Source: Candidatus Bathyarchaeota archaeon
GTDB lineage: Archaea; Thermoproteota; Bathyarchaeia; 40CM-2-53-6; RBG-13-38-9
Length of the DNA: 64,000 nt
Assembly: GCA_963807605.1 (NCBI GenBank)
Contig: CAWECG010000001.1
Span: 1 to 64,000, forward strand
Reading direction: 5' to 3'
In this document: positions 18,893-58,448 of the stretch, piece by piece
How positions within the stretch are numbered: the stretch's first letter is position 1
Layout of the letters: each line of letters starts with the position of its first letter
Notes under the pieces: model-generated
Seen by the model: only the letters and a program-made list of their open reading frames with translations
What the model was told of the DNA's origin: nothing
Database searches by the model: none
Translations under genes and position numbers: made by a program

Positions 18893-18903
18893 TTATCGTG
18901 TTA
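18893..18903 (+). repeat. attL core TTATCGTGTTA
   Basis: Identical to 58438-58448; begins 2 nt after the iorA stop. Confidence 0.88.
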
Positions 18904-19002
18904 CCGTGGCAGTTTTCGGCATGTGTTAATTTTGGTCTACTCTCCGGCAGTTCCAATTCGCTCTCTGGTTTATGAGTTCTTGAGGGCGTTATTCCGTCTT
19001 CG

Positions 19003-19194
19003 GTGAACTTGTTGAATCCGAGGGCTGAGGGTGCTTTTGAGGCTATCAGTTATGTGAAGGAGTTTCTTCACAGGTATGGAGATCGAGAGCGGTTTTCCGC
19101 GATGTTGGAGAAGGAGTTGGATGTTTTGATAAGTGATGTTGTGAGTGGGACCGCGGTGGATTTTCGGGTTCGGTTGCGAAATCCTGTGGGCTAA
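19003..19194 (+). CDS. Hypothetical viral protein
   Basis: 63 aa ORF next to attL. Confidence 0.5.
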   Translation: MNLLNPRAEGAFEAISYVKEFLHRYGDRERFSAMLEKELDVLISDVVSGTAVDFRVRLRNPVG

Positions 19195-19361
19195 ATTATT
19201 TCCTCCTTTTTGAGTAGCTCTCGTACCGCTTGAGAGATAACATCGGATTTGCTGTCTAGTCCCTGTTTCTTTGCTTTGTCTGTTGTCAGGTATACGTCAA
19301 CCATCTTCAGCAGGGGTGCAGGTATTCGGACGACTGCCTGTTTTCCCTTCGTTTTTGGCAT
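19191..19361 (-). CDS. Ribbon-helix-helix regulator (56 aa, not in the ORF track; candidate repressor)
   Basis: MPKTKGKQAVVRIPAPLLKMVD...SKSDVISQAVRELL; GGTGA RBS upstream. Confidence 0.8.
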   Translation of the reverse strand: MPKTKGKQAVVRIPAPLLKMVDVYLTTDKAKKQGLDSKSDVISQAVRELLKKEEII

Positions 19362-19370
19362 TTTTTCACC

Positions 19371-19440
19371 TATGTAACAGGCTGTTACTTCTACGTAACT
19401 GTTATATATTACTTGCGCATCTGTAACTTCTAAGTTACAG
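19371..19440. promoter_or_regulatory. Divergent promoter/operator region
   Basis: GTAAC-N5-GTTAC (19374-19388), GTAAC at 19395, central TTATATAT (19402-19409), and palindrome CTGTAACTT-CT-AAGTTACAG (19421-19440). Confidence 0.75.
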
Positions 19441-19448
19441 GTGATATT

Positions 19449-19631
19449 TTGAGAGAAAAAACAACTCCAGTACGCATGGATCGAGACCTTCTTCCGCCAC
19501 TCAGAAAAATAGTCTCTGAGTCAAGGGATGAGCTGGATCTCAAGAAGTACGGGAGCATTTCGGATATCGTAACCGAGGCCGTAAAACAGTTCCTGCGAAG
19601 ACAGAAGAAAACCGTGGGGGGTTCGGCTTGA
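19449..19631 (+). CDS. Ribbon-helix-helix regulator (candidate Cro-equivalent)
   Basis: TTPVRMDRDLL...YGSISDIVTEAVKQFL; GGTGA RBS. Confidence 0.75.
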   Translation: MREKTTPVRMDRDLLPPLRKIVSESRDELDLKKYGSISDIVTEAVKQFLRRQKKTVGGSA

Positions 19632-19711
19632 TCACCCTGCGCGACGCCATCATGGAAGCCCTAGGCATCCTCAGAAAGGCGCGGCGACCCCTCCAGGAGG
19701 CGACTAACTAA

Positions 19712-19906
19712 ATGACCGTTCAGAACTCTGTTGTCGGCAAGAGTGTCTTCGTGAAGCTCTTTGATGAAGACGCCAAAATCATTGAGAAGAAGGTTTTCGG
19801 CGACGACTGCTCCTTAGGCGATCAGACTGACATCAACACGAAAGTTTGGTTCCGGTACACCTCGGTTGAAGGTCATCCAGTCGTAGAGATGGAGGTGGCT
19901 ATCTGA
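19712..19906 (+). CDS. Hypothetical viral protein
   Basis: ORF in tightly packed early operon. Confidence 0.6.
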   Translation: MTVQNSVVGKSVFVKLFDEDAKIIEKKVFGDDCSLGDQTDINTKVWFRYTSVEGHPVVEMEVAI

Positions 19907-20169
19907 TGGTGATGGGATATTCAAATCTACCGACAACGGGCTCACCCGGTCTCTCTCCAAGTCCAGTCGAGCAAGTCCATCATTACATCGCCAAGTCTTG
20001 GACGGATCCCGACGTCAAGATTAGCGTCGAGACCATGAGCAAGGGCGACCCCAAAATCACAGTTGAGATCAAAGGCAACGATGAGAAAGACATCGCCAGG
20101 CGCGTTACTGAGGCTCTTACTCATGTGAAGGCGAAGCTGAAAGAAGCCGGCTACTCGGAGGCTTCCTAA
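19906..20169 (+). CDS. Hypothetical viral protein
   Basis: Coupled ORF with GGAGG RBS. Confidence 0.6.
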   Translation: MVMGYSNLPTTGSPGLSPSPVEQVHHYIAKSWTDPDVKISVETMSKGDPKITVEIKGNDEKDIARRVTEALTHVKAKLKEAGYSEAS

Positions 20170-20272
20170 TGACCCCACGAGACCTAGGTGAAATTCTCGG
20201 CTTGAAGAAATGGCACAAGACTCGAGACTACTATCATCCCCGATCAGAACTTGAGTACATCATGGAGGCGTC

Positions 20273-20857
20273 TTGATTTTGGGTCCAGACCAAATACTGC
20301 CCATTGGGCGCATTGAGCGAACAGACACTCTCTCAATCGGGCCTCACTACCGCAAGCTCTACAGCGGCATCAACCTATTCCTGCCAGACGGCACCCCGAT
20401 GACGACTGAGAACATTAGCACCGTCGCCCTGGCCGCTCAAGCAGAACTCGACGAGCGCATGGACAAATGGGCGGACACACACCTTGCCAAGCCAATTCCT
20501 GAAGCCCCGAAAACTGCCTATGAGCAATTCAAACCGAAAACTCAACCCGTGAACCCACACCAGGACGCAGCCCTAACCGCGCCAGCCCAGACCCGGCAGG
20601 GATCTCTGACGCCCATCCTTCCAGGAAGAGACCCTGATCGAGAAAGAGTTCTTGAGTGGAAGCCTTGGAGCAACCGGCAGGGCTTCTCAATATCTGGCGT
20701 CCACTACCCGGAGCTGGAGGACTTCCTCAGAAAAGGCAACCATGGCAACGAGAATCATTACCGCAGCGAAGATGGGAACGATTACTGGGCTCTGGCGCCG
20801 AGAGCCGGCGACGGCTATGGTCCCTGGGTTATAATGAAAAAGAAGCGGGGGTCCTGA
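20273..20857 (+). CDS. Hypothetical viral protein
   Basis: 194 aa ORF with GGAGG RBS. Confidence 0.6.
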   Translation: MILGPDQILPIGRIERTDTLSIGPHYRKLYSGINLFLPDGTPMTTENISTVALAAQAELDERMDKWADTHLAKPIPEAPKTAYEQFKPKTQPVNPHQDAALTAPAQTRQGSLTPILPGRDPDRERVLEWKPWSNRQGFSISGVHYPELEDFLRKGNHGNENHYRSEDGNDYWALAPRAGDGYGPWVIMKKKRGS

Positions 20858-20860
20858 GAC

Positions 20861-21088
20861 TTGGCTACTGTTCTCTGTGAAGATCAGGATCAAACCGCGC
20901 TCTCCTCAGTTTATCCTAGCGGAAAGGTCGCCCCACCCACCCGAATGATTCCCTGCCAACTCTGCGATAAGGCATTTCTCAGTCAAGTCTCTCTGGCGGA
21001 ACATATTCTCTGGCACATTAGGAAAACACCGACGAACGTGGCGAATGCGCTTGCGAAGGCTTGGTTCAAGGAGGCCTACTTGAAATGA
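20861..21088 (+). CDS. C2H2 zinc-finger protein
   Basis: CQLCDKAF....SLAEHILWH. Confidence 0.7.
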   Translation: MATVLCEDQDQTALSSVYPSGKVAPPTRMIPCQLCDKAFLSQVSLAEHILWHIRKTPTNVANALAKAWFKEAYLK

Positions 21089-21257
21089 GCGAGGAAGCAA
21101 AGTCTGGGAAGGCTATATTGACTGTCCTTGGTGCGGCAAGCCCTCCACCGTCAGAGTTGACAAGGCAACCATAACCCCGGCAGAACCCGCCCAGACGGAG
21201 ATCCTTGTCTCAGTGTCGAAGAGCCCTCAGACCAAGCTCGACGAGGTGGATTAACTC

Positions 21258-21698
21258 GTGACCCTCAACCTCCTCAGCAGCTTCAAGAGAGCAACAGAAC
21301 ACCCAGAATACAAGACCCCCCACTATCAGCCGAACCTTCGGAAGGAAGACCTGCAGCTCTGGCAGTACTGCGTCGTCGACGCCGTCGAAGGAATCATGAA
21401 GGAACAGGGCACCTCCGCCTCTCTGGAGGAGATTTATCAGTGGCTCCTGGACAACCAAGCGAGGCTCCGCCTTCCAGCCGTCCCTCACAGAAGATTCGGC
21501 CTGAACCTGGACCGCCGCGTAGCCGAAGCCGCCCTCTTCGACTCAAAACAGAACTTTTCAATGCTCAGGGGCCTACCCCAGATCCGCGGCATCGGCAAAG
21601 TCAAGGAACTGGAGGGAAACTCCCGCTACATCCTAAACCCCAACCTCTTCCCAGAAGCCGTCCCCCTTCTTCCAAAACAGGAGGATACCGCCTCTTGA
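21258..21698 (+). CDS. Hypothetical protein, possibly winged-helix DNA-binding
   Basis: GAGGTGG RBS; SASLEEIYQWL helix pattern. Confidence 0.55.
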   Translation: MTLNLLSSFKRATEHPEYKTPHYQPNLRKEDLQLWQYCVVDAVEGIMKEQGTSASLEEIYQWLLDNQARLRLPAVPHRRFGLNLDRRVAEAALFDSKQNFSMLRGLPQIRGIGKVKELEGNSRYILNPNLFPEAVPLLPKQEDTAS

Positions 21699-22249
21699 TC
21701 TTCGATAACCGCCCTCATGATGATGATGATGATCTTGTTTTAAACAAACAAACAAACAAACAAACAAACAGAGATCAACTGCAGGGACTCATTAATCCAA
21801 AGAGGCCACACGACGGGTTCGGAATACCGACGGCTCAAATCGGGATTCCCATCCCCAAGACGAAGGCGTGGGATAAGTTGAAGGCAGACCTTCTCATGCT
21901 GGCGGCGCGAGATGATGCTTCCCTGGCTTGGGTCGGCCGGGAGGCCTTGATCGAGTACGCCAAGCGACACTGTCCCGGCAATCCCCAGCTTCCACTAAGC
22001 AACTTCACAGGGAAGGAAGAGTTGAGCGAGGCTGCCAGGGAGAAACTCAAGCCGGCTGAAGAGGCTTACATGGAAGCTGAAAAACCAAAGCTTCAACCAC
22101 TGCCCGACTTCGAGAAGATGACAGATCAGGAGCTCATAGCTTTCTTCCGCAACCCCCGAACTGACTACGCCACCCAAGTAATAGCTGGATATGAAATTCA
22201 GCGGCGCGGCATAGACTTGAAAAAGGGCGTTTACCGGATGCTCTATTGA
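21695..22249 (+). CDS. RHH-like protein with microsatellite-encoded N-terminus (probable TTG start 21695)
   Basis: GGAGGA RBS and TTGA overlap; QIGIPIPK...LAARDDASLAWVGREALIEY resembles an RHH domain. Confidence 0.6.
   Translation: MIFDNRPHDDDDDLVLNKQTNKQTNRDQLQGLINPKRPHDGFGIPTAQIGIPIPKTKAWDKLKADLLMLAARDDASLAWVGREALIEYAKRHCPGNPQLPLSNFTGKEELSEAAREKLKPAEEAYMEAEKPKLQPLPDFEKMTDQELIAFFRNPRTDYATQVIAGYEIQRRGIDLKKGVYRMLY
21719..21769. repeat. (GAT)5 and (AAAC)7 simple sequence repeats
   Basis: Read directly at 21719-21733 and 21742-21769. Confidence 0.95.
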
Positions 22250-22647
22250 AGCCTGAACTATGCGCTAATGGCTGCGGTAGAAAGGTCGTTGGGAAGTTGA
22301 AGTACTGCGAAGTCTGCAGAAAAGTCCTCTTCAACAAGGCAATGGCCCGCATCAAGACAGCGCCTGCAACAGCCCAGAAAACCCCGCCCAGCGATCTATA
22401 CTTCAATCCTCGGCTATGTCTGAATCTTTCAAAACTAGCTCAAGAAGACAAAAAGAGGCATAAATCAGCCGAATTGCAGACTCGTGTTAAGAAAGCTTCT
22501 AGCCCTGATGGGGCACCCTCACACTTCTCCAGCTTACCGAAATGCACCATGCCAACCGTGGAGAATGTACTGGAGGAATCATGGAGGGTGCAGAATTGTA
22601 TTGGAAAGCGGCCTGAAATTTTTTTGGGGGTTTCCAGCCTTGTCTAG
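22246..22647 (+). CDS. Hypothetical Zn-binding protein
   Basis: CANGC...YCEVC. Confidence 0.55.
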   Translation: MKPELCANGCGRKVVGKLKYCEVCRKVLFNKAMARIKTAPATAQKTPPSDLYFNPRLCLNLSKLAQEDKKRHKSAELQTRVKKASSPDGAPSHFSSLPKCTMPTVENVLEESWRVQNCIGKRPEIFLGVSSLV

Positions 22648-22903
22648 GGAAGTTGACCTAGTTCCAACGGGCAAACGGAAGCTGGAGCGAACAATCAATG
22701 AGGTCATTCGCGGCGTCCGACGTCTCCGCATCGAAGTACAGAAGATGAGAGCCACCTTCCCAGCTGAGCTCAGCGTCAGAGGTAACAGCTACTATTTGAA
22801 AGTGCCTCCCAACGTTGTTCACCACTACCAACTCCTCGCCGGCGACTCGGTCGAGGTCCGCCTTCTCGAGGTCCGACGAATAAATCCTGAGGCGGAGGAC
22901 TAG
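22640..22903 (+). CDS. AbrB/MazE-like swapped-hairpin DNA-binding protein (probable TTG start 22640)
   Basis: RGNSYYLKVPPNVVHHYQLLAGDSVEV. Confidence 0.7.
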   Translation: MSREVDLVPTGKRKLERTINEVIRGVRRLRIEVQKMRATFPAELSVRGNSYYLKVPPNVVHHYQLLAGDSVEVRLLEVRRINPEAED

Positions 22904-23019
22904 CATTTGGTTTGTACCAGGAAGTGCGACTTAGAAGCTGAGATTCAAGAGCTGATGAAGAAGCACAACTTGACACGACAACAGTCTTTGGAACGATTAA
23001 GGAAGGCAGGATACTAGAA

Positions 23020-23265
23020 ATGACAACGATTACCTGGCGAAGTTTTGAGGATACCAAGAAAGTCTCTCAGCAAGAGGTAGACGAACTCATCAACCGAGCT
23101 GTCAATCAGTCTGCTAATTCTAGAATGGATCCTTGGATTCAGACTGGAGACACAATCATCTTCGCTCACCGCTACACAGACGGATCTATTGAGATCATGG
23201 ACTGTCGGCTGCGACGGATAGGATATGTTGAAGGCTGGAAAGGCAATGAGGCGACGAGGCAATGA
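23020..23265 (+). CDS. Hypothetical viral protein
   Basis: Coupled ORF. Confidence 0.55.
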   Translation: MTTITWRSFEDTKKVSQQEVDELINRAVNQSANSRMDPWIQTGDTIIFAHRYTDGSIEIMDCRLRRIGYVEGWKGNEATRQ

Positions 23266-23591
23266 ATCGCACCCTGCAGGATGAAGTAACCTCAAACAAT
23301 GACCGGCTCTGGCCTGAATGGAGAGATGTTCCTCATTGGTACTGGGTTCTTTGCATCTCTGGAGAAGCGGGCGAGTTGGCGAATAAGCTGAAGAAAATCT
23401 TTAGAGCAGAATGGGGCTGGCGTGGAAAGACAGCAAAGTTTGATGATTTAGTGGAAGAACTTGCGGACATTCAAATCTACCTCTATCTCTTAGCTGGAAA
23501 ACTTTCAATCAATCTTGAGAAAGAGACACAGAAAAAGATCGGAATAGTCAATGATCGCTTCGGCTGGAAGATTCAGGAGTTCCCAAAATGA
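23262..23591 (+). CDS. MazG-like NTP pyrophosphohydrolase
   Basis: GEAGELANKLKK...EELADIQIY (ExxE...EExD). Confidence 0.85.
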   Translation: MNRTLQDEVTSNNDRLWPEWRDVPHWYWVLCISGEAGELANKLKKIFRAEWGWRGKTAKFDDLVEELADIQIYLYLLAGKLSINLEKETQKKIGIVNDRFGWKIQEFPK

Positions 23592-23908
23592 AGAAATACG
23601 TTCGAGTTGCGCAGCGTCATCACGTCAGCTACGATCCTGAAGTCACCGTCATAATCTACCGAAGCGAACATGAAGTAATCACCAAACTAGTCCGCCTCTT
23701 GAAGTCAAGACCCAGCGAGGACTTCCTAGTCATCCTCGGTAAGATGGGTGAGATATTCCGTGAGAAGTGGAATCGGGAGCAGGAGGATTCGCAGAGGCGA
23801 CCTTTGACGCAGAAGCAGATGGAAGACCTCTACAGCGCACAGCAAGAAGCCAGCAAGAGACGCCGACGAGAGCGTAGACAGCAAAAGAAGTTGGAGTCAA
23901 AGACATGA
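23588..23908 (+). CDS. Hypothetical viral protein
   Basis: Coupled ORF. Confidence 0.55.
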   Translation: MKKYVRVAQRHHVSYDPEVTVIIYRSEHEVITKLVRLLKSRPSEDFLVILGKMGEIFREKWNREQEDSQRRPLTQKQMEDLYSAQQEASKRRRRERRQQKKLESKT

Positions 23909-24564
23909 CAACAGCCAAGGAGATTCTTCAACATGTAGATCTCCAGATAAGAAATATTCCCACCTCGCAGATCGACCAGGCTCCCGTCCAGCTTAGAAGA
24001 TTAGACATTGGCATCATGGAGGACATAGCTAACTCAGTCGATCAGGTTGGATGGCTGCAACCTATTCTCGTCCGCCCCAAAGGCGAACGGTTTGAAGTTG
24101 TCTTTGGGAATCACCGGCTGGAAGTTGGAAAGCAGCGCGGACTGGCGACTATGCCGTGCATCGTCAAGGACCTCGACGATGACGAGTCTTCTCTCACCGC
24201 GATTATTGAAAACTCTCAGAGAAACAATCACCTAGACCCGGCGAAGGAAGGCGAGATCTTCAACGACCTCTGCAACAAGTCGTGGACCGTGGAAAACATT
24301 GCGATAAAGATCGGTAAGAAGTCTGGGTACGTCTATAAGCGATTATACATCTACCGCAACTTACACGCAAAACTACTCGGCAAAGTATCGTCGAGACATC
24401 TGAACGTTGATGTGGCGGAGCAAATCGCCCGGTTCCCACTCGGCGAGCAACTAGAGATCGCAAAGAAATACATGAAAACCAGAGACCGCGTAAAGGCGGG
24501 CATCGGCAAATGCTACCACTGCCCAATCCACTGCCCCAAGACGGATTATGTTGGCTTTGTGTAG
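23905..24564 (+). CDS. ParB/Spo0J-like protein
   Basis: GWLQPILVRP, FEVVFGNHRL, IIENSQR, followed by an HTH. Confidence 0.85.
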   Translation: MTTAKEILQHVDLQIRNIPTSQIDQAPVQLRRLDIGIMEDIANSVDQVGWLQPILVRPKGERFEVVFGNHRLEVGKQRGLATMPCIVKDLDDDESSLTAIIENSQRNNHLDPAKEGEIFNDLCNKSWTVENIAIKIGKKSGYVYKRLYIYRNLHAKLLGKVSSRHLNVDVAEQIARFPLGEQLEIAKKYMKTRDRVKAGIGKCYHCPIHCPKTDYVGFV

Positions 24565-24986
24565 GGTGTAACATTTTGGGCTACAGAAATAATATCACAA
24601 GCTACGCGCGGGCCGAGAGTCAAGGCGAACATCAACTCCGAGAAGAATTTGCTAAAGCTGGATTGCACCCGCAATTCAATCGACCCCTAGACTGCTACGT
24701 CACAGAATCCGACATGGAGTTTTACCCCGGCTACAAGTATGAGATCCTTCAGGGATGGCCCGCCCTCGTCGTATTCGTCGACGGACCCCACCACGCCACG
24801 GATAAATTCCTAGAACGAGACGCCAAACTGACAGAACTCATCGAAAGCCCCTATCAAAAGGAATACCGTCGAAAGGTTGTCAGGGTTGAGAATTGGAAGG
24901 GCAGCCTACTCACGCAGAAACAGATCTGTGAAGCAATCGAGGAAGTCCAACAATACGTGCGACCACTCAGGAAAGGGGCGAAATAA
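24510..24986 (+). CDS. DUF559/Vsr-like endonuclease
   Basis: SQGEHQL, LVVFVDGPHH...RDAKL, KVVRV. Confidence 0.6.
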   Translation: MLPLPNPLPQDGLCWLCVGCNILGYRNNITSYARAESQGEHQLREEFAKAGLHPQFNRPLDCYVTESDMEFYPGYKYEILQGWPALVVFVDGPHHATDKFLERDAKLTELIESPYQKEYRRKVVRVENWKGSLLTQKQICEAIEEVQQYVRPLRKGAK

Positions 24987-25303
24987 TGGACGTCGTCGAA
25001 TGGCTTATGCTTGCTCGTGAAGTCACCAACACCAGGAGAAAGCAGGTTGGACCCCACTTGGGGGATCCCGTTGAATCCCTGAAGAAACTCAAGGAAGAGG
25101 TTAAGGAACTTAAGGAAGCTATCAAGCACGGCCACAACTCGCCCCCCCGAGAGAACCTGGATGAGATGTGGGACGTCATCCATGCGGTCCTGATGGTTGG
25201 TCACGACCTGAACTTCTCTAACGACTACCTAGCACGAGGACTATTCGAAAACCTGAGGAAGATCGAAAGACGAGCGGGCATCCTTGAAAAGGCAGGAGAC
25301 TAA
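24986..25303 (+). CDS. Second MazG-like pyrophosphohydrolase
   Basis: KLKEEVKELKEAI...DEMWDV. Confidence 0.7.
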   Translation: MDVVEWLMLAREVTNTRRKQVGPHLGDPVESLKKLKEEVKELKEAIKHGHNSPPRENLDEMWDVIHAVLMVGHDLNFSNDYLARGLFENLRKIERRAGILEKAGD

Positions 25304-25308
25304 CTGAA

Positions 25309-25476
25309 ATGACTGATTATCCTACTAGCGCAATCTATAATCGCCGGGCAACACAAATTCCTGTCAAGAGTGCTGAGCAACTCAATGCGGAAGACGGTGA
25401 CAGATTGATATGGAAATGGGATCCAGCCTCGCAGAAGATGATAGTTGAGGTTTGGAAAAAGCCCAGTAATCCCTGA
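25309..25476 (+). CDS. Small AbrB-like protein (55 aa, not in the ORF track)
   Basis: TQIPVKSAEQLNAEDGDRLIW. Confidence 0.55.
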   Translation: MTDYPTSAIYNRRATQIPVKSAEQLNAEDGDRLIWKWDPASQKMIVEVWKKPSNP

Positions 25477-25563
25477 ATCCTCGAATCACCTTAAATTGCT
25501 TTTCTTCCACCTTCTTCTTCAATATGATCCTTCCCCTAAACTCACCCGCCTAGAAAAGGTGGA

Positions 25564-25923
25564 TTGTCTTTAGAGGAATCTCTGATGCCACATAAACACT
25601 TGATGGGTAGTGGATGGCAGAAAAAACAAACCGCAAGAGGACGCGCCCTCGAAATTCTGGAATCTGACGAAGAACACTACATCTTCAAGGATAATGTTGA
25701 GAGTAAAGGCGAGGAAGTCCTCATCGCAACCCTCCCCGAGCTTGATATGAATCAGGGCGAGGTTCTAAGAGATCCCAAAGTGAAAAGCACCCGCAACCTC
25801 GGCCATGGTTACGAGCATCCAAACTACTCAATCTACTGTGACTATTTTAGCAGGCGACTCAGCGAGCTAACGGATTATCTGCGGCAGCGAGAGCGACCTG
25901 TTATCATGGTTGCTCAGCGTTGA
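25564..25923 (+). CDS. Hypothetical viral protein
   Basis: 119 aa ORF with AGGTGG RBS. Confidence 0.55.
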   Translation: MSLEESLMPHKHLMGSGWQKKQTARGRALEILESDEEHYIFKDNVESKGEEVLIATLPELDMNQGEVLRDPKVKSTRNLGHGYEHPNYSIYCDYFSRRLSELTDYLRQRERPVIMVAQR

Positions 25924-25929
25924 CTTCGA

Positions 25930-26691
25930 TTGAAAAACAAGGCTCTCGTAGTCATAAATGATCTACACTCTGGAAGCAAGTATGGGCCTATTCCTCCACG
26001 ATGGCGGCAAAGCGACCGTTCACTAGCACCTGGAACCGAGGCTAACCATTGGATCTATGAGAAGTTTGAATCCTCAGCCGAGGAGTTCAAGAAACCCGAC
26101 ATCCTAGTCTGTAATGGCGACATCACAGACGGCCACCAACACATCAACTACGGCCGGGAAGTCTGGGCGACAGACGCAATCGACCAGATTAAGCTTGGCG
26201 AATACCTAATCAGCCTTTATCAACCAAAAGAACTCTACATCGTGTACGGATCCCCCTATCACGTGCAGTATCAGGGTTTACAGGTTGAAAGGTTCATCGC
26301 AAGGTCGCTAAAAGCTAAAGGAGCCGGATGGCGTCTCAGACGAGAACTCGGCGGAACAACCTGCAGTATCGCACATCACATCACTGTAAGTTCTACGAGT
26401 TGGCAGTATCGGCTTACCCCACTCGGCATCCAAATGGTTCTCGATCGCCTGCAGAATGAGGATAAATCCGCTAATCTAATCTGTAGAGCTCATGCTCACT
26501 ACTATGGTTTTTGTGGTTTCGCTCACCAATTAGCCATCATAGTTCCCGGCTATCAAGGTCAGACTCCTTACGGTGCTATGAAGCAGCCTGAAGTCCGCCC
26601 GAAGATTGGCATGGTCGCCATTGAATTGCCCAGCCTAGATTTTACTTCGAGAACATGTGACGGACCAATTCTTGAGATGGAGGAGCCTTGA
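25930..26691 (+). CDS. Calcineurin-like metallophosphoesterase
   Basis: DLHSG, NGD, H, AHAH motifs. Confidence 0.8.
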   Translation: MKNKALVVINDLHSGSKYGPIPPRWRQSDRSLAPGTEANHWIYEKFESSAEEFKKPDILVCNGDITDGHQHINYGREVWATDAIDQIKLGEYLISLYQPKELYIVYGSPYHVQYQGLQVERFIARSLKAKGAGWRLRRELGGTTCSIAHHITVSSTSWQYRLTPLGIQMVLDRLQNEDKSANLICRAHAHYYGFCGFAHQLAIIVPGYQGQTPYGAMKQPEVRPKIGMVAIELPSLDFTSRTCDGPILEMEEP

Positions 26692-26981
26692 AGAAGGATC
26701 GTCCGCCTCCCAGCTTTCCGCGAGAGGATCCACCTGACTTTGATAAGGCTCTTGAACAATTAAGAGAGGATGCTAAACAGTATGTTCGAGTTGTAGACCG
26801 ACCGTGGACTGAGAAGGAAGAGGAAATCCTGCGGGAAATTCATGATAAAGTTCCTGCTAAGCAGATTGCTGAGCGATTACGTCGAACAGGGCCCTCAATT
26901 GATCATAAACTTCACAGAATGAATCTCGGTAAGAGGGCAATTGGAATTAGACTCTACCGTAAAAGAGATCCTGCACAATAA
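26688..26981 (+). CDS. Myb/HTH-like DNA-binding protein
   Basis: RPWTEKEEEIL...IAERLRRT..SI. Confidence 0.65.
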   Translation: MKKDRPPPSFPREDPPDFDKALEQLREDAKQYVRVVDRPWTEKEEEILREIHDKVPAKQIAERLRRTGPSIDHKLHRMNLGKRAIGIRLYRKRDPAQ

Positions 26982-27034
26982 TTATGCATAGAATTATGCA
27001 TGTAGATGCATAGTCAAGTCTTTGGCATGAGTAA

Positions 27035-27300: not shown

Positions 27301-27329
27301 ACTTTTATTCTTGTTATGAGGTAAAAAAA

Positions 27330-29767: not shown

Positions 29768-29851
29768 AGAAGTGCCCTGGAGAATACCAATCTTTCTCGC
29801 CGCCGTGCTTCTGGCCGGCTGGATGATTGATGGTTACGAGCGTGATAGTCG

Positions 29852-31627: not shown

Positions 31628-31639
31628 AGGCTGGGAAAT

Positions 31640-51318: not shown

Positions 51319-51327
51319 GTGACTTGA

Positions 51328-51753
51328 ATGCCAATAGTGAAAATGGGATTAACTCCAAGCATCCGGGCTCTTCCAATGACTACTGAGTCTGATCCCTACA
51401 CGAATCCTGAAGAGTTCGAACCTGTAACCACTGAACACAATGAGGTAGTGATAGTATTTGATAATATGCCGGAGGCTAGAGCTTTCTTCAATGATGTTCT
51501 CAAGGATGGTTCCGTACTTCCAGAGCAACCATTCGCAGCAGGCCTTAGACGATTGACTCTTGAGCAGAGCGATCCTGTTGTCGTCATGGTAGTATTCGCC
51601 AGAGAAAAATACGCAGCAAATTATCTTCTGCAACAGAGCGAGGGAAAATACAAGGGTGACGTCAAGAGGTTTATCACTGTCAGGAAAGGCGGGGACTTGT
51701 CTGAGGGTGAAACATTGTCGCTGAAAACTCTTAATTTCATGGCTGGGAGGTGA
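51328..51753 (+). CDS. Hypothetical tail-region protein
   Basis: GGTGA RBS. Confidence 0.6.
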   Translation: MPIVKMGLTPSIRALPMTTESDPYTNPEEFEPVTTEHNEVVIVFDNMPEARAFFNDVLKDGSVLPEQPFAAGLRRLTLEQSDPVVVMVVFAREKYAANYLLQQSEGKYKGDVKRFITVRKGGDLSEGETLSLKTLNFMAGR

Positions 51754-51757
51754 GAGA

Positions 51758-52003
51758 GTGACAGAGAAATCACCGCCAAAGATTCAGGTCCTCTTCCGTG
51801 ACGTCATAGAAGATACTCTCAGCCTTACCATTCGATTTAACTATCCCAAAGGTGTCTCCGTCGAGAAGGTCTTCAACTGGCCCGTGATCGGGAACAAGGC
51901 CGAGATTGACATGAGCCTTCGAAGGCTTTGGGAGCAGTACAGGCCCGACAAGATGAAGATGAATCCTTTGGACATCGAAGATATTACTTGGGAAGATAAG
52001 TAG
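51758..52003 (+). CDS. Hypothetical tail-region protein
   Basis: GGAGGTGA RBS. Confidence 0.6.
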   Translation: MTEKSPPKIQVLFRDVIEDTLSLTIRFNYPKGVSVEKVFNWPVIGNKAEIDMSLRRLWEQYRPDKMKMNPLDIEDITWEDK

Positions 52004-52420
52004 ATGACAAACACTATTGGCAGCCTGAATATCTCTGTCGTAACTGACGTGCAGAGAGCTAGGTCGCCACTCTTCGAGTCGCTGAGGATTCCTAGCGGAG
52101 AGACTCTTTACCCGTATGCTGGCGCACCTTCTCGAAGTTGGACTGTGAAGGCTTCCCTCATCAGCGCAACAGTTTTTGATGACTATGCGGCCTTGGAGAA
52201 TATGGAAGCTAGCGCCGTCCCTTACTACTACAATCTCTATGTGTCCTGGGCTGCCCAGCAATGGCAGGGCTTCGGGAAGATATCAGATCTTAAACTGGAC
52301 TCCGTGGCTCCATCTAACAGGATTGATTGCAGCTTCACTCTTAACGAGGTTCCAAGCTGGGGAAGAACATATATGAGTACTCCTGGAAAACAGGCGTATT
52401 TCTCTGATCTTGATTTCTAG
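52004..52420 (+). CDS. Distal-tail-like beta protein; may be fused to the next ORF by a frameshift
   Basis: Beta pattern ending FTLNEVP; next frame is open from 52414. Confidence 0.55.
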   Translation: MTNTIGSLNISVVTDVQRARSPLFESLRIPSGETLYPYAGAPSRSWTVKASLISATVFDDYAALENMEASAVPYYYNLYVSWAAQQWQGFGKISDLKLDSVAPSNRIDCSFTLNEVPSWGRTYMSTPGKQAYFSDLDF

Positions 52421-52548
52421 GGCAGATAGAGGATATTCTCTCTCCTGCGTGGGCTAAACACAACTACTCAATTGATAGAGTTAACAAGAACATTAGCTGG
52501 GAGTTTATTCTTCAAAATCAGCTTGAGGAGACAGCGAGCGCTATTCTT

Positions 52549-54069
52549 ATGAATGATGATTCTGATCCTGATGGATACTGGGGCACTTTCTCTAGTGGTT
52601 CTGGCAGCCTAGGTGTTCCAACTCTCTCTGATGAGACGGCTTTCGTGGCAAGAGATGTGAACTCTCTAAAGATTGTTCCTGCAGCAGGCGCTTTCGGTGT
52701 TGTCGGGGTCGAACACACCTATGGAGGAAATCAGGATTGGTCGGCTGCAGACTTTCTCGGTTTCTGGTGGTATGGTAGTGGTTCAGGTGTTACTATAACC
52801 GTTGCTATATACTCGCCTGACTCAAGCAACTATTCTTCCTCAAGTTTCGTAGATAATTTCTATGGCTACCGCCGTTTTATTATTCCTCTGAGGTACTTCT
52901 CAAGCACAGGATCTCCTTCTTTGTCAACAGTGAAAGAAGTCATATTTTCTTGGACTGTTAATCCAGGCACTATCTATCTTGATCGTGTTGTTGCTGATGC
53001 AGGAACTTGGATCAATTTCGAGAGCCAGCTTCCAGATCGTGTTAAGATGCCCAGTGCGTCTGGAATATCTCTCTACAGTTGGAACGGGTCCGAATACAAT
53101 GTGGTGGATGCTGCCGATATTTATACCAAGTTGCTTTGTCCTTTTGATATTGACTATTCAGACTTCACAGGAGTTCACACGCTCACGAATACCAACTGCT
53201 CTATAAGCTCCTCTATCAAGAAGTTTGGTGCTGGAAGCTGTTACTTCGATGGTACAGCAGCCTTAACAATTTCACCTTACGCAGATATGCAACTTGGATC
53301 AAGTGATTGGACCATTGAGACTTGGGCGTATTTCCCGGTTGTGCCTGCTACTTGGGGAAAAATCTTTGCACAGGGCATTATTGCTAATAGTCTTGTTATG
53401 GGGATGTTTGGGTGGAATGACGTCTATAAGCTTTTCACAAATCTCTATGTGGGTAGCTCAAACATATTTACCACAATGAGTAGTTCCTTCTCCCTATCAA
53501 CGAATACATGGTATCATATTCGATTTGTGAGACAGGGCAGTAACTGGTATCAATTCTTCAACGGCTTTCTCGTTGGCGCGATAACAAACGCGACAGCCGT
53601 GCCTACTATGACTTATCCGCCCACGATTGGAGCGTGGCTCTGGAATGGATCAACCCTTGAAGATTTCATAACTGCATATCTAGATGATTACCATGTAACC
53701 TTTGTTGCTCTAAGCACGACAGATTATACTCCTCCAACATCTCCATGTGTTTACAGCCCTGGGGGATTCTATTTTTTGGACGGCAGCAAATCGGTGAATG
53801 TCTATTCAGGCACTTCCGGTATCAAAAGGTTCATGCCTAATGTGCTGGGTGCTACCGCGTATGGTGAAAGTCCTGACGCGGCCAGTTCTCTAGTCTACAC
53901 AAACAAGATGGGATGCAAGAACAGGTTTGGGTTGAGCGTTAAAATGCCTCCTGCAACATTCGATGGCTTGTATAATGCATTAGATGCTTCAGGCGCTCTG
54001 GCGTTGAACAAAACCCAGTTGAAAATCGTCGCTAGTTATGAGGATGATTCCACTACATGGGTTGATTGA
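52549..54069 (+). CDS. Tail adhesin with carbohydrate-binding and LamG/concanavalin-like domains
   Basis: DWSAADFLGFWWYG; KFGAGSCYFDG, DWTIETW, NTWYHIRFVR, YLDD. Confidence 0.75.
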   Translation: MNDDSDPDGYWGTFSSGSGSLGVPTLSDETAFVARDVNSLKIVPAAGAFGVVGVEHTYGGNQDWSAADFLGFWWYGSGSGVTITVAIYSPDSSNYSSSSFVDNFYGYRRFIIPLRYFSSTGSPSLSTVKEVIFSWTVNPGTIYLDRVVADAGTWINFESQLPDRVKMPSASGISLYSWNGSEYNVVDAADIYTKLLCPFDIDYSDFTGVHTLTNTNCSISSSIKKFGAGSCYFDGTAALTISPYADMQLGSSDWTIETWAYFPVVPATWGKIFAQGIIANSLVMGMFGWNDVYKLFTNLYVGSSNIFTTMSSSFSLSTNTWYHIRFVRQGSNWYQFFNGFLVGAITNATAVPTMTYPPTIGAWLWNGSTLEDFITAYLDDYHVTFVALSTTDYTPPTSPCVYSPGGFYFLDGSKSVNVYSGTSGIKRFMPNVLGATAYGESPDAASSLVYTNKMGCKNRFGLSVKMPPATFDGLYNALDASGALALNKTQLKIVASYEDDSTTWVD

Positions 54070-55424
54070 ATCTGGCTTTTCCTAGAGTTTCAAGGCCTAT
54101 GGGAGGCGGCATATTCCTTGGAGGGCCTCAAAGTAGTAGTTACATAGTGCAGGCTTTAGGTGATGTTGTCACGGCTTATCCAATGTCTGGAACTGGTTTG
54201 GAGTCTTTTGAAGGAGACACTCACACAGTCATTCAAGGATGCATTGATGCTGTTGCTGAGGTTGGTGGAGGAACAATTTTACTTCTTAAAGCTCGTTATC
54301 CTGCGCTCTCTGAAGGACTTCTAATCAACAATCGACACATTAGAATCTCTGCGGAGATTGGCACTATTCTTCAAGGATCGGTGATGCCTTTGCTAGAGGT
54401 TCTGGGGAACGGAATGGATCTTCCAAAGGAAGATGAGGTCATAAACGACGTTCAGGTTCTAGGGTTTCCTGAGTTTCTCTACACTGGCTCAGTTCAAACT
54501 GGGAAGGTAGTGAATATTCATGGAGGCATTTCATCGGACAATCGTTTTCAAGGGCCCATTATCTTCAACCTGATTACGAGATATTGTCCTTCTGGTACTG
54601 ACCAAAACACACAGATGGATGTTCCAACAGATGAAACCTTTGTAGGATTTAATCTGGAAGATTGTGTGGGTGCACATATCTGTTTTTCAACAGATTTCTT
54701 TGGAACAGGGTACAGGTATGGAGGAGGAGGGATATGGCAGGGAAGTCACAATGTATACACTCAATGCATGATCGGATACTGCAAACGTGGTGTATGGTAC
54801 AACTGGGCAGATACCACTTGTGAAACCTGGATTGCTTTGAAGATAATGCACACGGCCGAATACGCGTTTTATGGCGACTCGGATGGTTATCCGACCCAGT
54901 TGATTATGATTGCTCCACAGGTAGAGATTGCTTTTCTTAATGGGTACAACCTCAGGCCCTCTACTCTGCAAATAACTAATGGAGTGTTCAGCTCGATTTA
55001 TGACAATCCTGCAATAGTTTTTCAAGACTCTTCGACTGGTGCGGACTCTTCAGCTTGGCTTCAACAGAATAGTTTTTGGAACTGTCCTGCGGGGGCGATA
55101 AAAACTGCCTCTCCAACTTTTCTATGGGGTAATCAATACTCTGGCACTACCCCTGCTGCTCCTGTGATTTTGAATGGAGCATACGGCAAAATAATTCCCG
55201 CCTCGTTTGATTTGGGATATGTCATCGTCAATGCTGGAAATAGTATAGGAACTGGAGCTCAGCAAACAATTGCTCATGGACTATCAGCCATCCCCACCGC
55301 GGTCTACTTCAGTGACATAGACCTTGAAGCAGGACCTTACCAGTCAGCAGTCGCCGACGCGGCGAACATCTACATAACCGCTGTGTCAGGGAAGAACTAC
55401 CGTTGGAAGGCTGTGATCGAGTAG
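54066..55424 (+). CDS. Beta-helix (pectate-lyase-like) tailspike
   Basis: VIQGCIDAV...GGGTILL start motif; C-terminal TIAHGLSAIP. Confidence 0.7.
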   Translation: MNLAFPRVSRPMGGGIFLGGPQSSSYIVQALGDVVTAYPMSGTGLESFEGDTHTVIQGCIDAVAEVGGGTILLLKARYPALSEGLLINNRHIRISAEIGTILQGSVMPLLEVLGNGMDLPKEDEVINDVQVLGFPEFLYTGSVQTGKVVNIHGGISSDNRFQGPIIFNLITRYCPSGTDQNTQMDVPTDETFVGFNLEDCVGAHICFSTDFFGTGYRYGGGGIWQGSHNVYTQCMIGYCKRGVWYNWADTTCETWIALKIMHTAEYAFYGDSDGYPTQLIMIAPQVEIAFLNGYNLRPSTLQITNGVFSSIYDNPAIVFQDSSTGADSSAWLQQNSFWNCPAGAIKTASPTFLWGNQYSGTTPAAPVILNGAYGKIIPASFDLGYVIVNAGNSIGTGAQQTIAHGLSAIPTAVYFSDIDLEAGPYQSAVADAANIYITAVSGKNYRWKAVIE

Positions 55425-56374
55425 TGGAAATCTCAGTTAATCTCTATGATCAGAGCCAGCTTCAGTATCTTCCAGCATTAGCAGGGAAGATTCAAACTGT
55501 CATCTGGTACGGCCCGATAAGCAGCCAAGCCGCCGACGCCATCCACAACCATGGATTTCAGGTCTTCTACGCCTGCGATGCTCTCCGAGCCTGCAACACT
55601 TGGACCCTAGACGGTGTGACGCTCAACCCAAAGTGGTGCCAGTACGACTCCACAAGCAAGCAGTCATTCATCACGGATCAAAATGGTTACTGCTCCGCGC
55701 TCCCATGTGGCGCCGGAGGAACAGAAGCATGGTTCAGTCCACTCGGCCCCTTCACTTTCCGCGTCACAATTCCAAGAGTGAACTCGACAATTCAAGCGGG
55801 CTTCGATGGAATCTTCCTGATGAGCTTCAACCTCTGGCGAGATGATGGCGCGATGTCAGGCGGTGCTTGTGCTAACCCGGACTGGACTATGCCGATCAAG
55901 AATCAAGTCTACAGCTGCATCGCGGACTGGCAGCAGTTCCGCAAGGTCCAGATCGCGGACATGGCCAGCAGGATAAGCCAAGCCGCGAGGAGTAGCGGCC
56001 TCAAGGTTTGGTACAATGATGACAACATCTACATGCGGTTGTGGCCCGACGTCGTCAGACTTCGAGAAAGATTCGCCAGCAACCTCTCAGGAATGCAATC
56101 CTTCGCGGATGGCTATGTTTTTGAGTGGCTTGGAACCCCAGAGGACAACGCGATCGTTGACCATGTAACATTTCAGCAGGAGATTGACCAGGCGGTCAAC
56201 TGCATTCAGAACGCTAGGCAGGGCGACTCAATAGGCAAGCCGATAACGCTCATCGCCATAACCGGGCGCCAGGACGTCTACGACTATCTTCTCGCGAAGG
56301 CGTCTCAAAACACCTTCAACGTCTGGACTAGCTGGCGGTTCCTAGCCGGACTGCCGACGCCGCCCTACGCCTAA
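55424..56374 (+). CDS. Glycoside-hydrolase-like TIM-barrel protein (probable GTG start 55424)
   Basis: IHNHGFQVFY, GFDGIFL, WQQFR, ADGYVFE. Confidence 0.55.
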   Translation: MEISVNLYDQSQLQYLPALAGKIQTVIWYGPISSQAADAIHNHGFQVFYACDALRACNTWTLDGVTLNPKWCQYDSTSKQSFITDQNGYCSALPCGAGGTEAWFSPLGPFTFRVTIPRVNSTIQAGFDGIFLMSFNLWRDDGAMSGGACANPDWTMPIKNQVYSCIADWQQFRKVQIADMASRISQAARSSGLKVWYNDDNIYMRLWPDVVRLRERFASNLSGMQSFADGYVFEWLGTPEDNAIVDHVTFQQEIDQAVNCIQNARQGDSIGKPITLIAITGRQDVYDYLLAKASQNTFNVWTSWRFLAGLPTPPYA

Positions 56375-56387
56375 GTTCTGCTCAGTT

Positions 56388-57227
56388 TTAACCTGTTAGC
56401 GGATGCTCTCTCTTTCTCAACACCGAAACTGCAAGAACTACTACTATCAGCACAGGCATGACTTGCGGGAGTTCAGGGATTGGCTGTCCAGCATCCAGCC
56501 ATAAGGTGTGAAAAACAGTCGCCACCGCGTTTGCCGCCAGATTAAGGCTTACCCCTACTCGGGTCTTGAACTGGGGATCACTCCAGTTGTAGTGAGTATC
56601 CATCCACGTCGCATTAGGTGGCACAAACATAGTGTTGTATGCTAGTTCTAGAGTCGCTTGATAAGCCGTTGTGTGGTTAAGCGGTCCCATCACCATGATC
56701 GACTGGTCAAACATGGATTGGTGGTCGTTGACGTAGGTTTCATAGTCTTCATGATGCTTCTCAACACCCCACGGCGTATTCGCTCCCATAACGTGGCCCC
56801 AAACTGCCATGTCAGAAATATAGTGGCTTACGGCTCCGGCAACCATGACCCCGCCGGAAAAGTTGCCTTTCTTTAGTAGAGCTAGTGCTTCGTTGTAGGT
56901 CTCGTTGGCTCTTCTAGCAGATGAGTCGTCAGTTACTTGGTGTTTCTCATTAAAATACACGTGGTGGTTGAATTGGTCACCGTAGCCGCCCATGTTCTTC
57001 GGCCGGTCCGGCAATTCTGTACCGTAATACAACCAGTTGATGTTATTCTTGAAAATTGCAGTCTCACTGACAGGCAGAAGTAGAATTGCTTTCTCAGCTA
57101 TCCAGTCGTGTGTGCCCATAGCGGGATGGGAAGGTGAGGTGGACCAGCCGCCGTTGCTCCAAGCATAGACAGGAGTCCCGTAAGTTAAGAATAAGATTAT
57201 GATAGAAAAGACTGCGAGGCTCTTCAA
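56388..57227 (-). CDS. Secreted Zn-dependent phospholipase C/S1-P1-fold enzyme with PEF-CTERM-like anchor
   Basis: Signal peptide then W; THDWI, ELPD, HH, HYISD, HEDYE; C-terminal IPE-TM-RKR. Confidence 0.85.
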   Translation of the reverse strand: MKSLAVFSIIILFLTYGTPVYAWSNGGWSTSPSHPAMGTHDWIAEKAILLLPVSETAIFKNNINWLYYGTELPDRPKNMGGYGDQFNHHVYFNEKHQVTDDSSARRANETYNEALALLKKGNFSGGVMVAGAVSHYISDMAVWGHVMGANTPWGVEKHHEDYETYVNDHQSMFDQSIMVMGPLNHTTAYQATLELAYNTMFVPPNATWMDTHYNWSDPQFKTRVGVSLNLAANAVATVFHTLWLDAGQPIPELPQVMPVLIVVVLAVSVLRKREHPLTG

Positions 57228-58384
57228 GTTTTCACCTCCGCCTCTAGTACTTTGGGGTCAGCTGTCAGCATCTTCTTCAGCAACTCCTCAACCCGGCTGA
57301 TGCGTTCCTGATTATCACTTATCACCTCGTCCCGCTCCTGGAGATCCTGGCGGAGCTTCTTGACTTCTTGCTGCTCCCGATCGGTCTGCACCCCCGACAT
57401 GATGTTCAGATGTTTCTCAGCGATCCGGTAATGCTCCAATGTGTAGCTTCGGTCCATGTAGAACTTGTCGTACTGATTTGGATCCGTGGTGTGTCCCATC
57501 CAGTACTCAACGCATTGAAGATCAAGTCCGTCGCCTTTACCCTTCAAGTGCAGTAGGGTTCTTGCGACGTCTCGGAACTCGTGGAGATTATAGCCGTACC
57601 TGACCGCTGTTGAGTGGCTATGCTTAACATATTTGAGCCGCTCAAGCAGCCTCATGTGGAGCTGCCGGTAAGCGCCTTTTGTGCAGGATCCAGATCCGTT
57701 TACCAGGAGGATCGGCTCACCTGCACCGGGCCAGCCGCGGATCCGCTCAAAATACTCCTTCCACGCTGCCAAGGCGTCGCGGCCTATGAAGGTTTGATAG
57801 TTCTTCTTGTTCTTGGTCTGCTTCCTGCCAGGATACTCAAACATGAAGGGGGTTTGAATCCCCTCCTTCTTCAAGTGCTGGGTCAACGCCTCACCGCATC
57901 CTGCGTTGAACTGGGTGAACCGTTCCAGGTCCATGAGGCCCTGCCATAAAGTCAGATAGAAAGCCTTCCGGCCCATAGGTGAGTTTTCAACCAGCGCCTT
58001 TATGATCTCAACTGTCAGCTTTCCGCTCGAGGGAGGTCGATCCGCATGAATCGCAAAGTCATCCTCAGGCAGAGGGGCCCGGTTCTTTTTGAAGAAGGAT
58101 CTCAGAATCGCATACTGAACGACCAGGCTATTGTAGGTTCCCTTCCTCCCCTGAAAGTAGGCTTGTAAAGCATCCAGGATCACAAACTGATCCTTCTTCT
58201 CCGCGTTCGCTTGAAACTCAACAAGCTGCCGTGGGGTCAACCCGCGAAGCCGCTCATTACCCTGCAGGAACTCAAGAAACCCGGCTAGCTTATATAGGCG
58301 GCTCCGACAGTCCGCATCTGGATAATGGCCAAGCCACCGAGCAACAGCGGGATCCCCAGCTAGAGAATCAACCTTGGATGTCAT
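57224..58384 (-). CDS. Proviral tyrosine integrase (probable ATG 58384)
   Basis: HEFRD, WMGH, NQY motifs; adjacent to attR. Confidence 0.88.
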   Translation of the reverse strand: MTSKVDSLAGDPAVARWLGHYPDADCRSRLYKLAGFLEFLQGNERLRGLTPRQLVEFQANAEKKDQFVILDALQAYFQGRKGTYNSLVVQYAILRSFFKKNRAPLPEDDFAIHADRPPSSGKLTVEIIKALVENSPMGRKAFYLTLWQGLMDLERFTQFNAGCGEALTQHLKKEGIQTPFMFEYPGRKQTKNKKNYQTFIGRDALAAWKEYFERIRGWPGAGEPILLVNGSGSCTKGAYRQLHMRLLERLKYVKHSHSTAVRYGYNLHEFRDVARTLLHLKGKGDGLDLQCVEYWMGHTTDPNQYDKFYMDRSYTLEHYRIAEKHLNIMSGVQTDREQQEVKKLRQDLQERDEVISDNQERISRVEELLKKMLTADPKVLEAEVKT

Positions 58385-58415
58385 CAGTAAAACCACTAAC
58401 CAATACACAAATTAA

Positions 58416-58423
58416 CTATATAA
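58416..58423. promoter_or_regulatory. TATA box candidate usable on both strands (int and iorB)
   Basis: CTATATAA, 20 nt before the iorB GTG and 32 nt before the int ATG. Confidence 0.5.
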
Positions 58424-58437
58424 CAAGAATGACTGTG

Positions 58438-58448
58438 TTATCGTGTTA
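58438..58448 (+). repeat. attR core TTATCGTGTTA (contains the iorB GTG)
   Basis: Identical to 18893-18903. Confidence 0.88.

Follow-up and report, generated by a model that had tools for sequence, protein, structure and literature searches.

A complete-looking tailed provirus between iorA and iorB in a Candidatus Bathyarchaeota genome

In the window analysed here, the first 64,000 nucleotides of contig CAWECG010000001.1 of the Candidatus Bathyarchaeota archaeon assembly GCA_963807605.1, from an uncultured archaeon of sediment or soil, the genes for the two subunits of indolepyruvate:ferredoxin oxidoreductase (IOR), iorA and iorB, are held far apart on the same strand by a series of viral genes with an integrase gene at its right-hand end (Table 1). 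IOR, which takes part in the fermentation of aromatic amino acids, requires both of its subunits. The genome has one copy of each gene: the iorA product scores 792 bits against the TIGR03336 IOR_alpha model (cutoff 651) and carries the Pfam domains TPP_enzyme_C, POR_N and Fer4, and the iorB product, whose best 12 matches are all IOR beta models at 199-204 bits, just below the cutoffs of 206-238, matches PF01558 at 1e-35. The arrangement is very probably that of a temperate, Caudoviricetes-type provirus that was placed site-specifically at the iorA/iorB junction by its own divergent tyrosine integrase, cutting the operon in two. Bathyarchaeia are among the most abundant archaea of anoxic sediments and are essentially uncultured, with viruses known only from metagenomes; for this class the locus supplies a base-precise pair of attachment sites (attL and attR) together with the genome of a temperate virus that looks complete.

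The iorA/iorB junction and the ends of the insert

The insert is flanked by two direct copies of an 11-bp sequence, TTATCGTGTTA, both on the + strand. The left copy, the attL core, starts 1 nt past the iorA stop codon (TGA, 18889-18891), and the right copy, the attR core, includes the iorB start codon (GTG, 58443-58445), the core spanning positions -5 to +6 relative to that codon. Excision in silico of the insert with one core (39,545 bp) leaves AAG-TGA-ATTATC-GTG-TTA, in which the iorA stop and the iorB GTG are rejoined across a spacer of 6 nt, just as a first-pass annotation of this DNA had proposed when it described a provirus that splits iorAB at the iorB start codon. The repeat is not significant by itself: TTATCGTGTTA occurs three times in the 2,653,217 bp of the genome, the third copy being on contig C4, at least two matches were obtained in 14 of 100 shuffles, and a repeat scan of the same region, serving as a control, also contained a chance 13-mer. 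Its significance lies not in its length but in its placement at the iorA stop and the iorB start.

The appearance of the target before insertion can be read from other genomes. Wherever related genomes have iorB, iorA lies directly upstream of it (11 of 11), ending 0-10 nt before iorB, at iorB protein identities of 37-66%. The closest operon-bearing relative reads AAGTGA-GAAGTT-GTG-GAA-ACCTACAGCATAGTC and is colinear with the insert-deleted junction, with the same 6-nt spacer. Among the more diverse archaeal and bacterial loci retrieved with IorA, iorB is immediately downstream in 74 of 80, and four of the six exceptions stop at a contig edge. The adjacency of the two genes in virus-free relatives, on which the first-pass annotation had made its proposal depend in part, was therefore found among close and distant genomes alike. 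The named closest IorA loci and integrase homologues derive from metagenome-assembled genomes (MAGs) of Bathyarchaeia or Bathyarchaeota. One Bathyarchaeia MAG locus (L076, 2896-4345) was considered as a further provirus-split iorAB and rejected, as a tryptophanase-like (beta-eliminating lyase) gene follows iorA there and no provirus is present.

With identical direct repeats at its ends, an integrase beside one of them and a target that is uninterrupted in relatives, the insert has the features by which proviruses are recognised, and its GC content is 0.49-0.56 as against 0.45-0.49 in the flanks. Neither ARAGORN nor Rfam found a tRNA in the window, and Rfam found no family of any kind there, in keeping with the earlier claim of a non-tRNA attB. 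Such sites have been documented in archaea, psiM100 being intergenic and the Halorubrum virus BJ1 being inserted in an HMG-CoA reductase gene, as have short cores, of 11 bp in Msmi-Pro1 and 8 bp in thaumarchaeal elements (PMC8371274). The present element is like these proviruses in that it was integrated outside a tRNA gene, with a tyrosine integrase, a core within the 8-13 bp range and an integrase gene that is not split; it is unlike them in that its core lies across the start codon of iorB, the downstream gene of an operon for a two-subunit enzyme, and in that integration separates co-transcribed subunits while leaving both open reading frames (ORFs) whole. Given the documented non-tRNA sites and cores of 8-13 bp, this type of attB is unusual rather than unprecedented. 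No archaeal case of a subunit-separating attachment site laid over a start codon was found in the open-access literature.

The integrase and its sister elements

The gene that adjoins attR encodes a protein with an extra C-terminal helix of ~50 aa (a coiled-coil tail) and with no match in Pfam (E<=0.01), PHROGs or NCBIfam, PF00589 Phage_integrase included; its 65 homologues are all annotated as hypothetical, and none has a Pfam domain. An AlphaFold model of it (predicted local distance difference test, pLDDT, 88), which has the two-domain fold of the superfamily with a core-binding and a catalytic domain, was matched by Foldseek to XerA at E 1.5e-5, with a probability of 1.00 to XerA, Tn1549 Int, XerH, Cre and lambda Int. 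The VIA Z score of the model is 16.5 to archaeal XerA, 15.1 to the catalytic domain of the SSV1 integrase (3vcf; root-mean-square deviation 2.9 Å over 156/160 residues), 14.3 to Cre (260 aa at 4.0 Å) and 11-12 to lambda Int. An alignment of 31 sequences has an invariant G-R-K (194-196), H276-x-x-R279 and H306, and R163 and Y313, the latter in GHxTDPNxYDKFY, are near-invariant (>=90% of the 31 homologues). It seems clear from the modelled fold and these motifs, and not from any sequence profile, that the 386-aa protein is a tyrosine recombinase. Matches of the integrase profile to C2H2-linker-like PDB entries were set aside as spurious, no Cys/His zinc ligand pattern being present. In structure the catalytic domain is close to that of the SSV1-type ('suicidal', type I) integrases, but in SSV-type elements attP lies inside int, which is split on integration, whereas here int is unsplit, with 53 bp between its start codon and the core upstream.

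Much of the support for the boundaries comes from a second copy of the system. On contig C4 (~96922-99290; L032:334-2702), a sister remnant of 2.4 kb retains an integrase 77% identical to that of the provirus together with both arms. The int-proximal end of this remnant aligns with the provirus to 58433 and then diverges, and its other end aligns with the provirus left arm; in place of the core, its left end has TTAAAGTATTGC and its right end TTAAGGTATTAC, two sequences that are related to each other and have the pattern TTA..GT.TT in common with TTATCGTGTTA. The remnant sits between a divergent pair of host genes, one of 243 aa and one for a beta-CASP/aCPSF-like RNase, which are direct divergent neighbours in 13 relatives, and its left core is ~15 nt upstream of the longest-ORF start of the 243-aa gene. 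Because the two sisters share their end architecture, with a diverged core, at different non-tRNA loci, they support both site-specific recombination and the boundaries drawn here.

The same shared architecture argues against two other accounts of the junctions. In the first, the 11-bp repeat would be a target-site duplication left by an insertion of transposition type (Mu-like or casposon-like) and not an attP/attB core, an account that is given some room because no free viral attP, with the core in the virus before integration, was seen. It is very improbable all the same, since no transposase or Cas1 occurs among the scanned ORFs >250 aa, a tyrosine recombinase adjoins the element end, and the sister has the related sequence at both equivalent ends in a different host locus. 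The second account, that a viral contig was misjoined into the chromosome at a short shared sequence, has in its favour that the genome is a metagenome-type assembly. An overlap of 11 bp is, however, far too short for a mis-join, both junctions fall exactly at the halves of one conserved operon, and the layout, with int by one core, the switch region near the other and the cores direct, is the canonical product of integration; as the assembly is also highly contiguous (5 contigs), an artefact of this kind is improbable in the extreme.

The enzyme family is not confined to the present genome. It was present in 65 of the 401 Bathyarchaeia species genomes sampled (~16%), and iorA or iorB lies beside no other family locus in 400 genomes, the att site not being a family-wide target. 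In several other members (loci L036, L038, L040, L048, L165/L166 and the P0005 contig), a conserved housekeeping gene of host type is divergent from int, with 58-105 nt between the two starts. The distance is 62 nt for a DHH/RecJ-like gene, 64 for a GNAT gene next to PolB, 89 for GMP synthase and 105 for Cdc48, and a gene before RpiA is also of this group; Rpo7 is closer, at 24 nt by longest ORFs. This suggests that the family may prefer the 5' ends of protein-coding genes; scanning for direct repeats was unable to set the ends of paralogous elements, with chance 10-13-mers as long as the true core in a control on the provirus.

Two smaller features of these elements may be recorded here. In the reconstructed attP (58434-58448 joined to 18904-18929), the right arm, the core and the left arm each contribute a direct copy of (T/C)GTGTTA, and these three copies, which lie within ~45 bp, are candidate integrase binding sites; GTGTTA/GTTAA-like motifs also occur beside int in other members of the family. 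On contig C3 (~85842-86726), an integrase paralogue 57% identical to that of the provirus lacks the N-terminal ~100 residues, with the break at a TCGCGCGCGCGTA run that recurs many times nearby.

Expression of iorAB and activity of the element

In the mechanism proposed here, integrase-catalysed site-specific recombination at the 11-bp core would insert the virus in the chromosome, and both ORFs survive because the core is duplicated. iorA would keep its promoter and now run into the viral left arm, and iorB, placed 39.5 kb away behind the divergent integrase gene, would lose its transcriptional coupling. At the ancestral junction, the iorA stop is overlapped by an AGTGA that resembles a Shine-Dalgarno (SD) motif and occupies -11 to -7 relative to the iorB GTG (GGTGA in relatives). 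Across the genome, SD-like motifs are most frequent at -15 to -9; at attR, viral CTGTG stands in place of AGTGA. With that replacement and the separation from iorA, iorB is predicted to be left without promoter linkage and ribosome-binding context. The integrated virus would lower IOR, or make IOR depend on transcription that leaves the viral int promoter region; the element would still be excision-competent, and the operon would be whole again once it had left.

Upstream of iorB, CTATATAA is the one sequence that resembles a promoter; measured from its centre, the iorB GTG is 23.5 nt away and the int ATG 35.5 nt. TATA-like hexamers upstream of 1,917 ORFs of the genome are commonest at -33 to -43 and form a second, lower peak at -24 to -26 (a stricter start-codon filter, which left 193 ORFs, was too noisy), and four family members with other insertion sites keep CTTGTTATATA ahead of int. 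CTATATAA is best read as primarily the predicted integrase promoter, and it is likely, from their overlapping positions, that the phospholipase-C-like gene would be co-expressed with the integrase in the lysogen.

Perhaps the same element also serves iorB. Acting outward, or in both directions, CTATATAA, at 20-27 nt before the iorB GTG, would then give a leaderless iorB mRNA, and IOR would be rewired rather than silenced. The distance of the TATA centre from the GTG and a C/G pyrimidine-purine step at the start codon fit such a transcript, and the minor genome-wide peak at -24 to -26 is consistent with some genes being leaderless. The divergent host-type genes of other family members, if cut from their promoters, would need one from the element, and in some of the Streptococcus pyogenes islands known as SpyCI a promoter of the element does rescue downstream genes, namely those downstream of mutL (PMC3430984). 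Against promoter take-over, the same TATA with its CTTG flank is conserved at the int of elements elsewhere, at the modal promoter distance for int and not for iorB; the A-rich B recognition element (BRE) signal, found at -5 to -3 in this genome, is present in neither orientation; and no consistent TATA stands at a leaderless distance from the host gene in other family members. We regard the take-over as possible but doubtful. An extension of it seems unlikely: that the whole family specialises in protein-coding genes, attaching at their 5' ends and not at tRNA genes, and has an outward int-side promoter that takes over the displaced host genes, with the iorB, RecJ-like, Rpo7, Cdc48, GMP synthase, GNAT and aCPSF-neighbour genes as example sites. 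If it were true, lysogeny would put an IOR subunit, and elsewhere housekeeping genes, under viral control, excision would return that control, and the family would offer an archaeal parallel to active lysogeny in which promoter replacement is built in.

Splitting of an operon by an excisable element is known from bacteria. SpyCIM1 and related islands of S. pyogenes are inserted in the mutS-mutL operon at the 5' end of mutL (PMC4689407, PMC4129442, PMC3430984), and prophages engaged in 'active lysogeny' include the comK phage of Listeria (PMC7397523). The present element, like SpyCIM1, is integrase-bearing and phage-like and has entered an operon at the 5' end of its downstream gene; SpyCIM1 blocks co-transcription, and its excision restores the operon, a behaviour that the present element may share. 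The SpyCI cases are bacterial, with growth-phase-dependent excision shown by experiment, whereas the host here is archaeal and the element is a full-size virus known from its sequence. Gene switches controlled by prophages are thus established in bacteria, and none was found for archaea in the open-access literature searched. As the insertion divides the subunits of the genome's only IOR, it can be hypothesised that viral integration and excision alter a carbon-degradation trait. Tailed proviruses of Bathyarchaeia, archaeal non-tRNA att sites and bacterial operon-splitting islands controlled by excision are already known; what is new is the start-codon-spanning, intercistronic attB in an archaeal two-subunit enzyme operon, together with an integrase family invisible to profiles and the virus lineage.

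Several observations weigh against the reading of an active, operon-splitting temperate virus. No excised circle, same-strain empty site or junction-spanning read or contig was found in the collections searched, and the assembly contains the integrated form only. The left arm holds two T4 tracts within 40 nt, and transcripts from iorA may read through past them. Pfam recognised no replication protein among the virus genes, and six large ORFs of the early region are without PHROG matches. In the integrase, the position of the box I Arg, expected within G-L-R, is occupied by M159, the candidates for that residue being R163 or the invariant R195, with uncertain placement. Lastly, the AlphaFold model of the major capsid protein (MCP), built from a 6-sequence alignment, is unusable, with a pLDDT of 31.

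The search for other states of the site covered several sources. A degenerate 39-nt pattern for attB, attP, attL and attR matched nothing in JGI metagenome contigs or IMG/VR. In four sequencing runs (Logan contigs; small-share holders) searched with positions 50000-64000, no contig bridged 58438-58448; the contigs, which are short and ~95-97% identical, cover the host flank from 58476 on and the phospholipase-C-like gene in isolation, and nothing of 50000-56000 except for one short contig near 51900-52300 in one run. The runs listed for this DNA all contain small shares of it, and none is RNA. The cover speaks neither for nor against an empty site or expression.

It is conceivable on these grounds that the provirus is cryptic and fixed, integrated as described and now without excision or virions, in which case the operon would carry a permanent lesion, with IOR lost or low and no switching. 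The integrated form as the only one in the assembly, the lack of attP and attB in the public collections searched and the lack of a recognisable replication gene all lean this way, and at least three decayed copies of the integrase family in the genome (the C4 remnant, the C3 copy cut short at a GC-repeat scar, and fragments) indicate that decay is common here. The cores are nevertheless identical, ~60 packed ORFs are open, all structural genes and the integrase among them, and the catalytic motifs of the integrase are kept. Neither ior gene has decayed, a sign that the event was recent. A cryptic state is therefore entertained only tentatively, and the identical cores, open ORFs and intact ior genes suggest that the insertion by the temperate virus was recent.

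The virus, its gene content and its relatives

The insert has the appearance of a complete head-tailed virus genome of 39,545 bp. It codes almost wholly on the + strand, in ~60 tightly packed ORFs, and all long ORFs are open. The genes for the large terminase subunit (TerL), portal, scaffold, MCP, adaptor, head closure protein Hc1, Neck1, tape measure and tail proteins, with the integrase, agree with the first-pass description of a complete-looking tailed provirus (Table 1); the term is fair, but replication and lysis genes are not among the recognised functions, and a tail sheath was not detected among the virus proteins. The MCP itself has no Pfam or PHROG match, and its profile gave no match to PDB sequences. 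It has five full-length homologues at 43-52% identity, and two of the six aligned sequences (MCP and these five) match PF05065 Phage_capsid, with a best E of 1.9e-5. TerL is more widely represented, with 434 homologues at E<=1e-3 in the representative library. The integrase paralogue is the only other place in the genome where a 20-mer of the provirus recurs, which leaves no self-targeting CRISPR spacer.

Table 1. Features of the provirus and its flanks (positions in the window; strand given where assigned)
Feature	Position	Strand	Basis or remarks
iorA, IOR alpha subunit	17056-18891	+	611 aa, intact; TIGR03336 and Pfam
attL core, TTATCGTGTTA	18893-18903	+	Aligned with related core at left end of sister remnant
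Left arm, non-coding (99 bp)	18904-19002	+	Two T4 tracts, GTGTTA repeat; homologous to left end of C4 sister remnant
RHH-like protein, 56 aa, candidate lysogeny repressor	19191-19361	-	Weak PF01402, E 0.021; divergent from next gene
Switch region, operator-like	19362-19448		Central TTATATAT flanked by GTAAC/GTTAC inverted and direct repeats
Small DNA-binding-type protein, 60 aa	19449-19631	+	First gene of rightward operon; no family match, role by position
Early/accessory region	19712-32133	+	Pfam matches
MazG-like protein	23262-23591	+	Pfam; early region
ParB-N protein	23905-24564	+	Pfam; early region
Metallophosphatase	25930-26691	+	Pfam; early region
PLD-family nuclease/phospholipase	27267-27878	+	Pfam; early region
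458-aa protein with InlB B-repeat	27875-29251	+	Pfam; early region
Candidate small terminase subunit (TerS)	32336-32719	+	Directly upstream of TerL in two IMG/VR relatives, 41-51% identity; no family match
TerL	32643-34010	+	PF17289; phrog_5653 4.6e-14, phrog_38, phrog_9
Portal	34014-35789	+	phrog_9232 7.7e-10; PF04860 weak, below cutoff; directly after TerL
586-aa head-module protein, role not assigned	36801-38561	+	N-terminus 45% identical to that of related virus contig
Head scaffolding protein	39138-39575	+	phrog_673 5.3e-7
MCP, HK97 type by transitive homology (356 aa)	39589-40659	+	PF05065 of homologues; follows scaffold gene
Cassette in head module: two glycosyltransferase-like genes and one radical-SAM-like	40923-43487	+	phrog_1574/34859, phrog_1802
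Head-tail adaptor	43496-43870	+	phrog_1161/442
Head closure Hc1	43880-44236	+	phrog_501
Tail completion/Neck1	47489-47839	+	phrog_5 9.5e-11
Tape measure protein	47859-49622	+	phrog_33360 1.5e-9, phrog_991
Distal tail, baseplate and fibre region	49597-56374	+	PHROG tail matches
Tail protein	49597-51318	+	PHROG tail match
Laminin_G_3/CBM baseplate-wedge-like protein	52549-54069	+	PF13385
Two proteins without assigned function, distal tail region	54066-55424; 55403-56374	+	Host-genome paralogues, 43% and 64%
Zn-dependent phospholipase C-like protein	56388-57227	-	PF00882 1.5e-8, above cutoff; start overlaps integrase stop
Tyrosine integrase (int), 386 aa	57224-58384	-	Fold and motifs; ATG at 58384 agrees with database gene call and family alignment
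Right arm with predicted int promoter	58385-58437		TATA-like CTATATAA at 58416-58423
attR core, TTATCGTGTTA	58438-58448	+	Holds iorB start codon
iorB, IOR beta subunit	58443-59033	+	196 aa, intact; 39.5 kb from iorA

Relatives of the virus are few and partial. TerL found no match by tblastn in the INPHARED phage collection, its best counterpart in 300 Bathyarchaeia species genomes is 30% identical, and full-length matches above 40% identity number only three among 1.84 billion cluster representatives. Four IMG/VR contigs (L063-L066) carry a TerL at 50-64% identity, two of them with TerS as well; their portal, capsid and tail genes are unrelated to those of the provirus, and it seems that the packaging module was exchanged in the form of a cassette. 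A search of IMG/VR with an MCP pattern gave no relative. The only public contig with the head module in common, at 41-45% identity, is JBGGHD010000141.1 of GCA_041643135.1, which has neither the tail genes nor the integrase. From this distribution of genes the virus would belong to a sparsely sampled, mosaic lineage, and with no INPHARED match and a handful of partial metagenome relatives, the lineage is probably undescribed, as had been surmised at the outset.

Tailed viruses and proviruses of Bathyarchaeia have been reported from metagenomes, among them 'Fuxiviridae' and 'Kunpengviridae' (PMC10848311) and a set of eight proviruses (PMC11705971). The present virus is like these in its host class and in having head and tail modules of Caudoviricetes type, and Kunpengvirus has been proposed to be temperate, with an integrase. 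In two supplement files of PMC10848311, the identifiers of the IMG/VR relatives and the NCBI contig do not appear. The survey of PMC11705971 drew its boundaries from tRNA genes and recognisable integrases and would miss the present element; surveys that rely on these two features will undercount such proviruses.

The region next to the left arm (19191-19631) has a lambda-like switch layout. Its two small genes diverge 87 bp apart; a TATA-like palindrome marks the centre, and a 20-bp palindrome and an 18-nt direct repeat are also present. The proteins encoded at 30234-31286, 54066-55424 and 55403-56374 have paralogues on host contig C4, at 50%, 43% and 64% identity, which points to probable exchange between viral tail or accessory genes and the host or other integrated elements. 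Contigs from soil and sediment metagenomes match the phospholipase-C-like gene at 85-100%, and almost nothing else of the 6.4 kb of viral sequence upstream of it. Between the capsid and head-tail adaptor genes, the glycosyltransferase and radical-SAM cassette also includes a small ORF rich in Cys; in the related NCBI contig, genes for a GT2 protein and a methyltransferase occupy the equivalent position.

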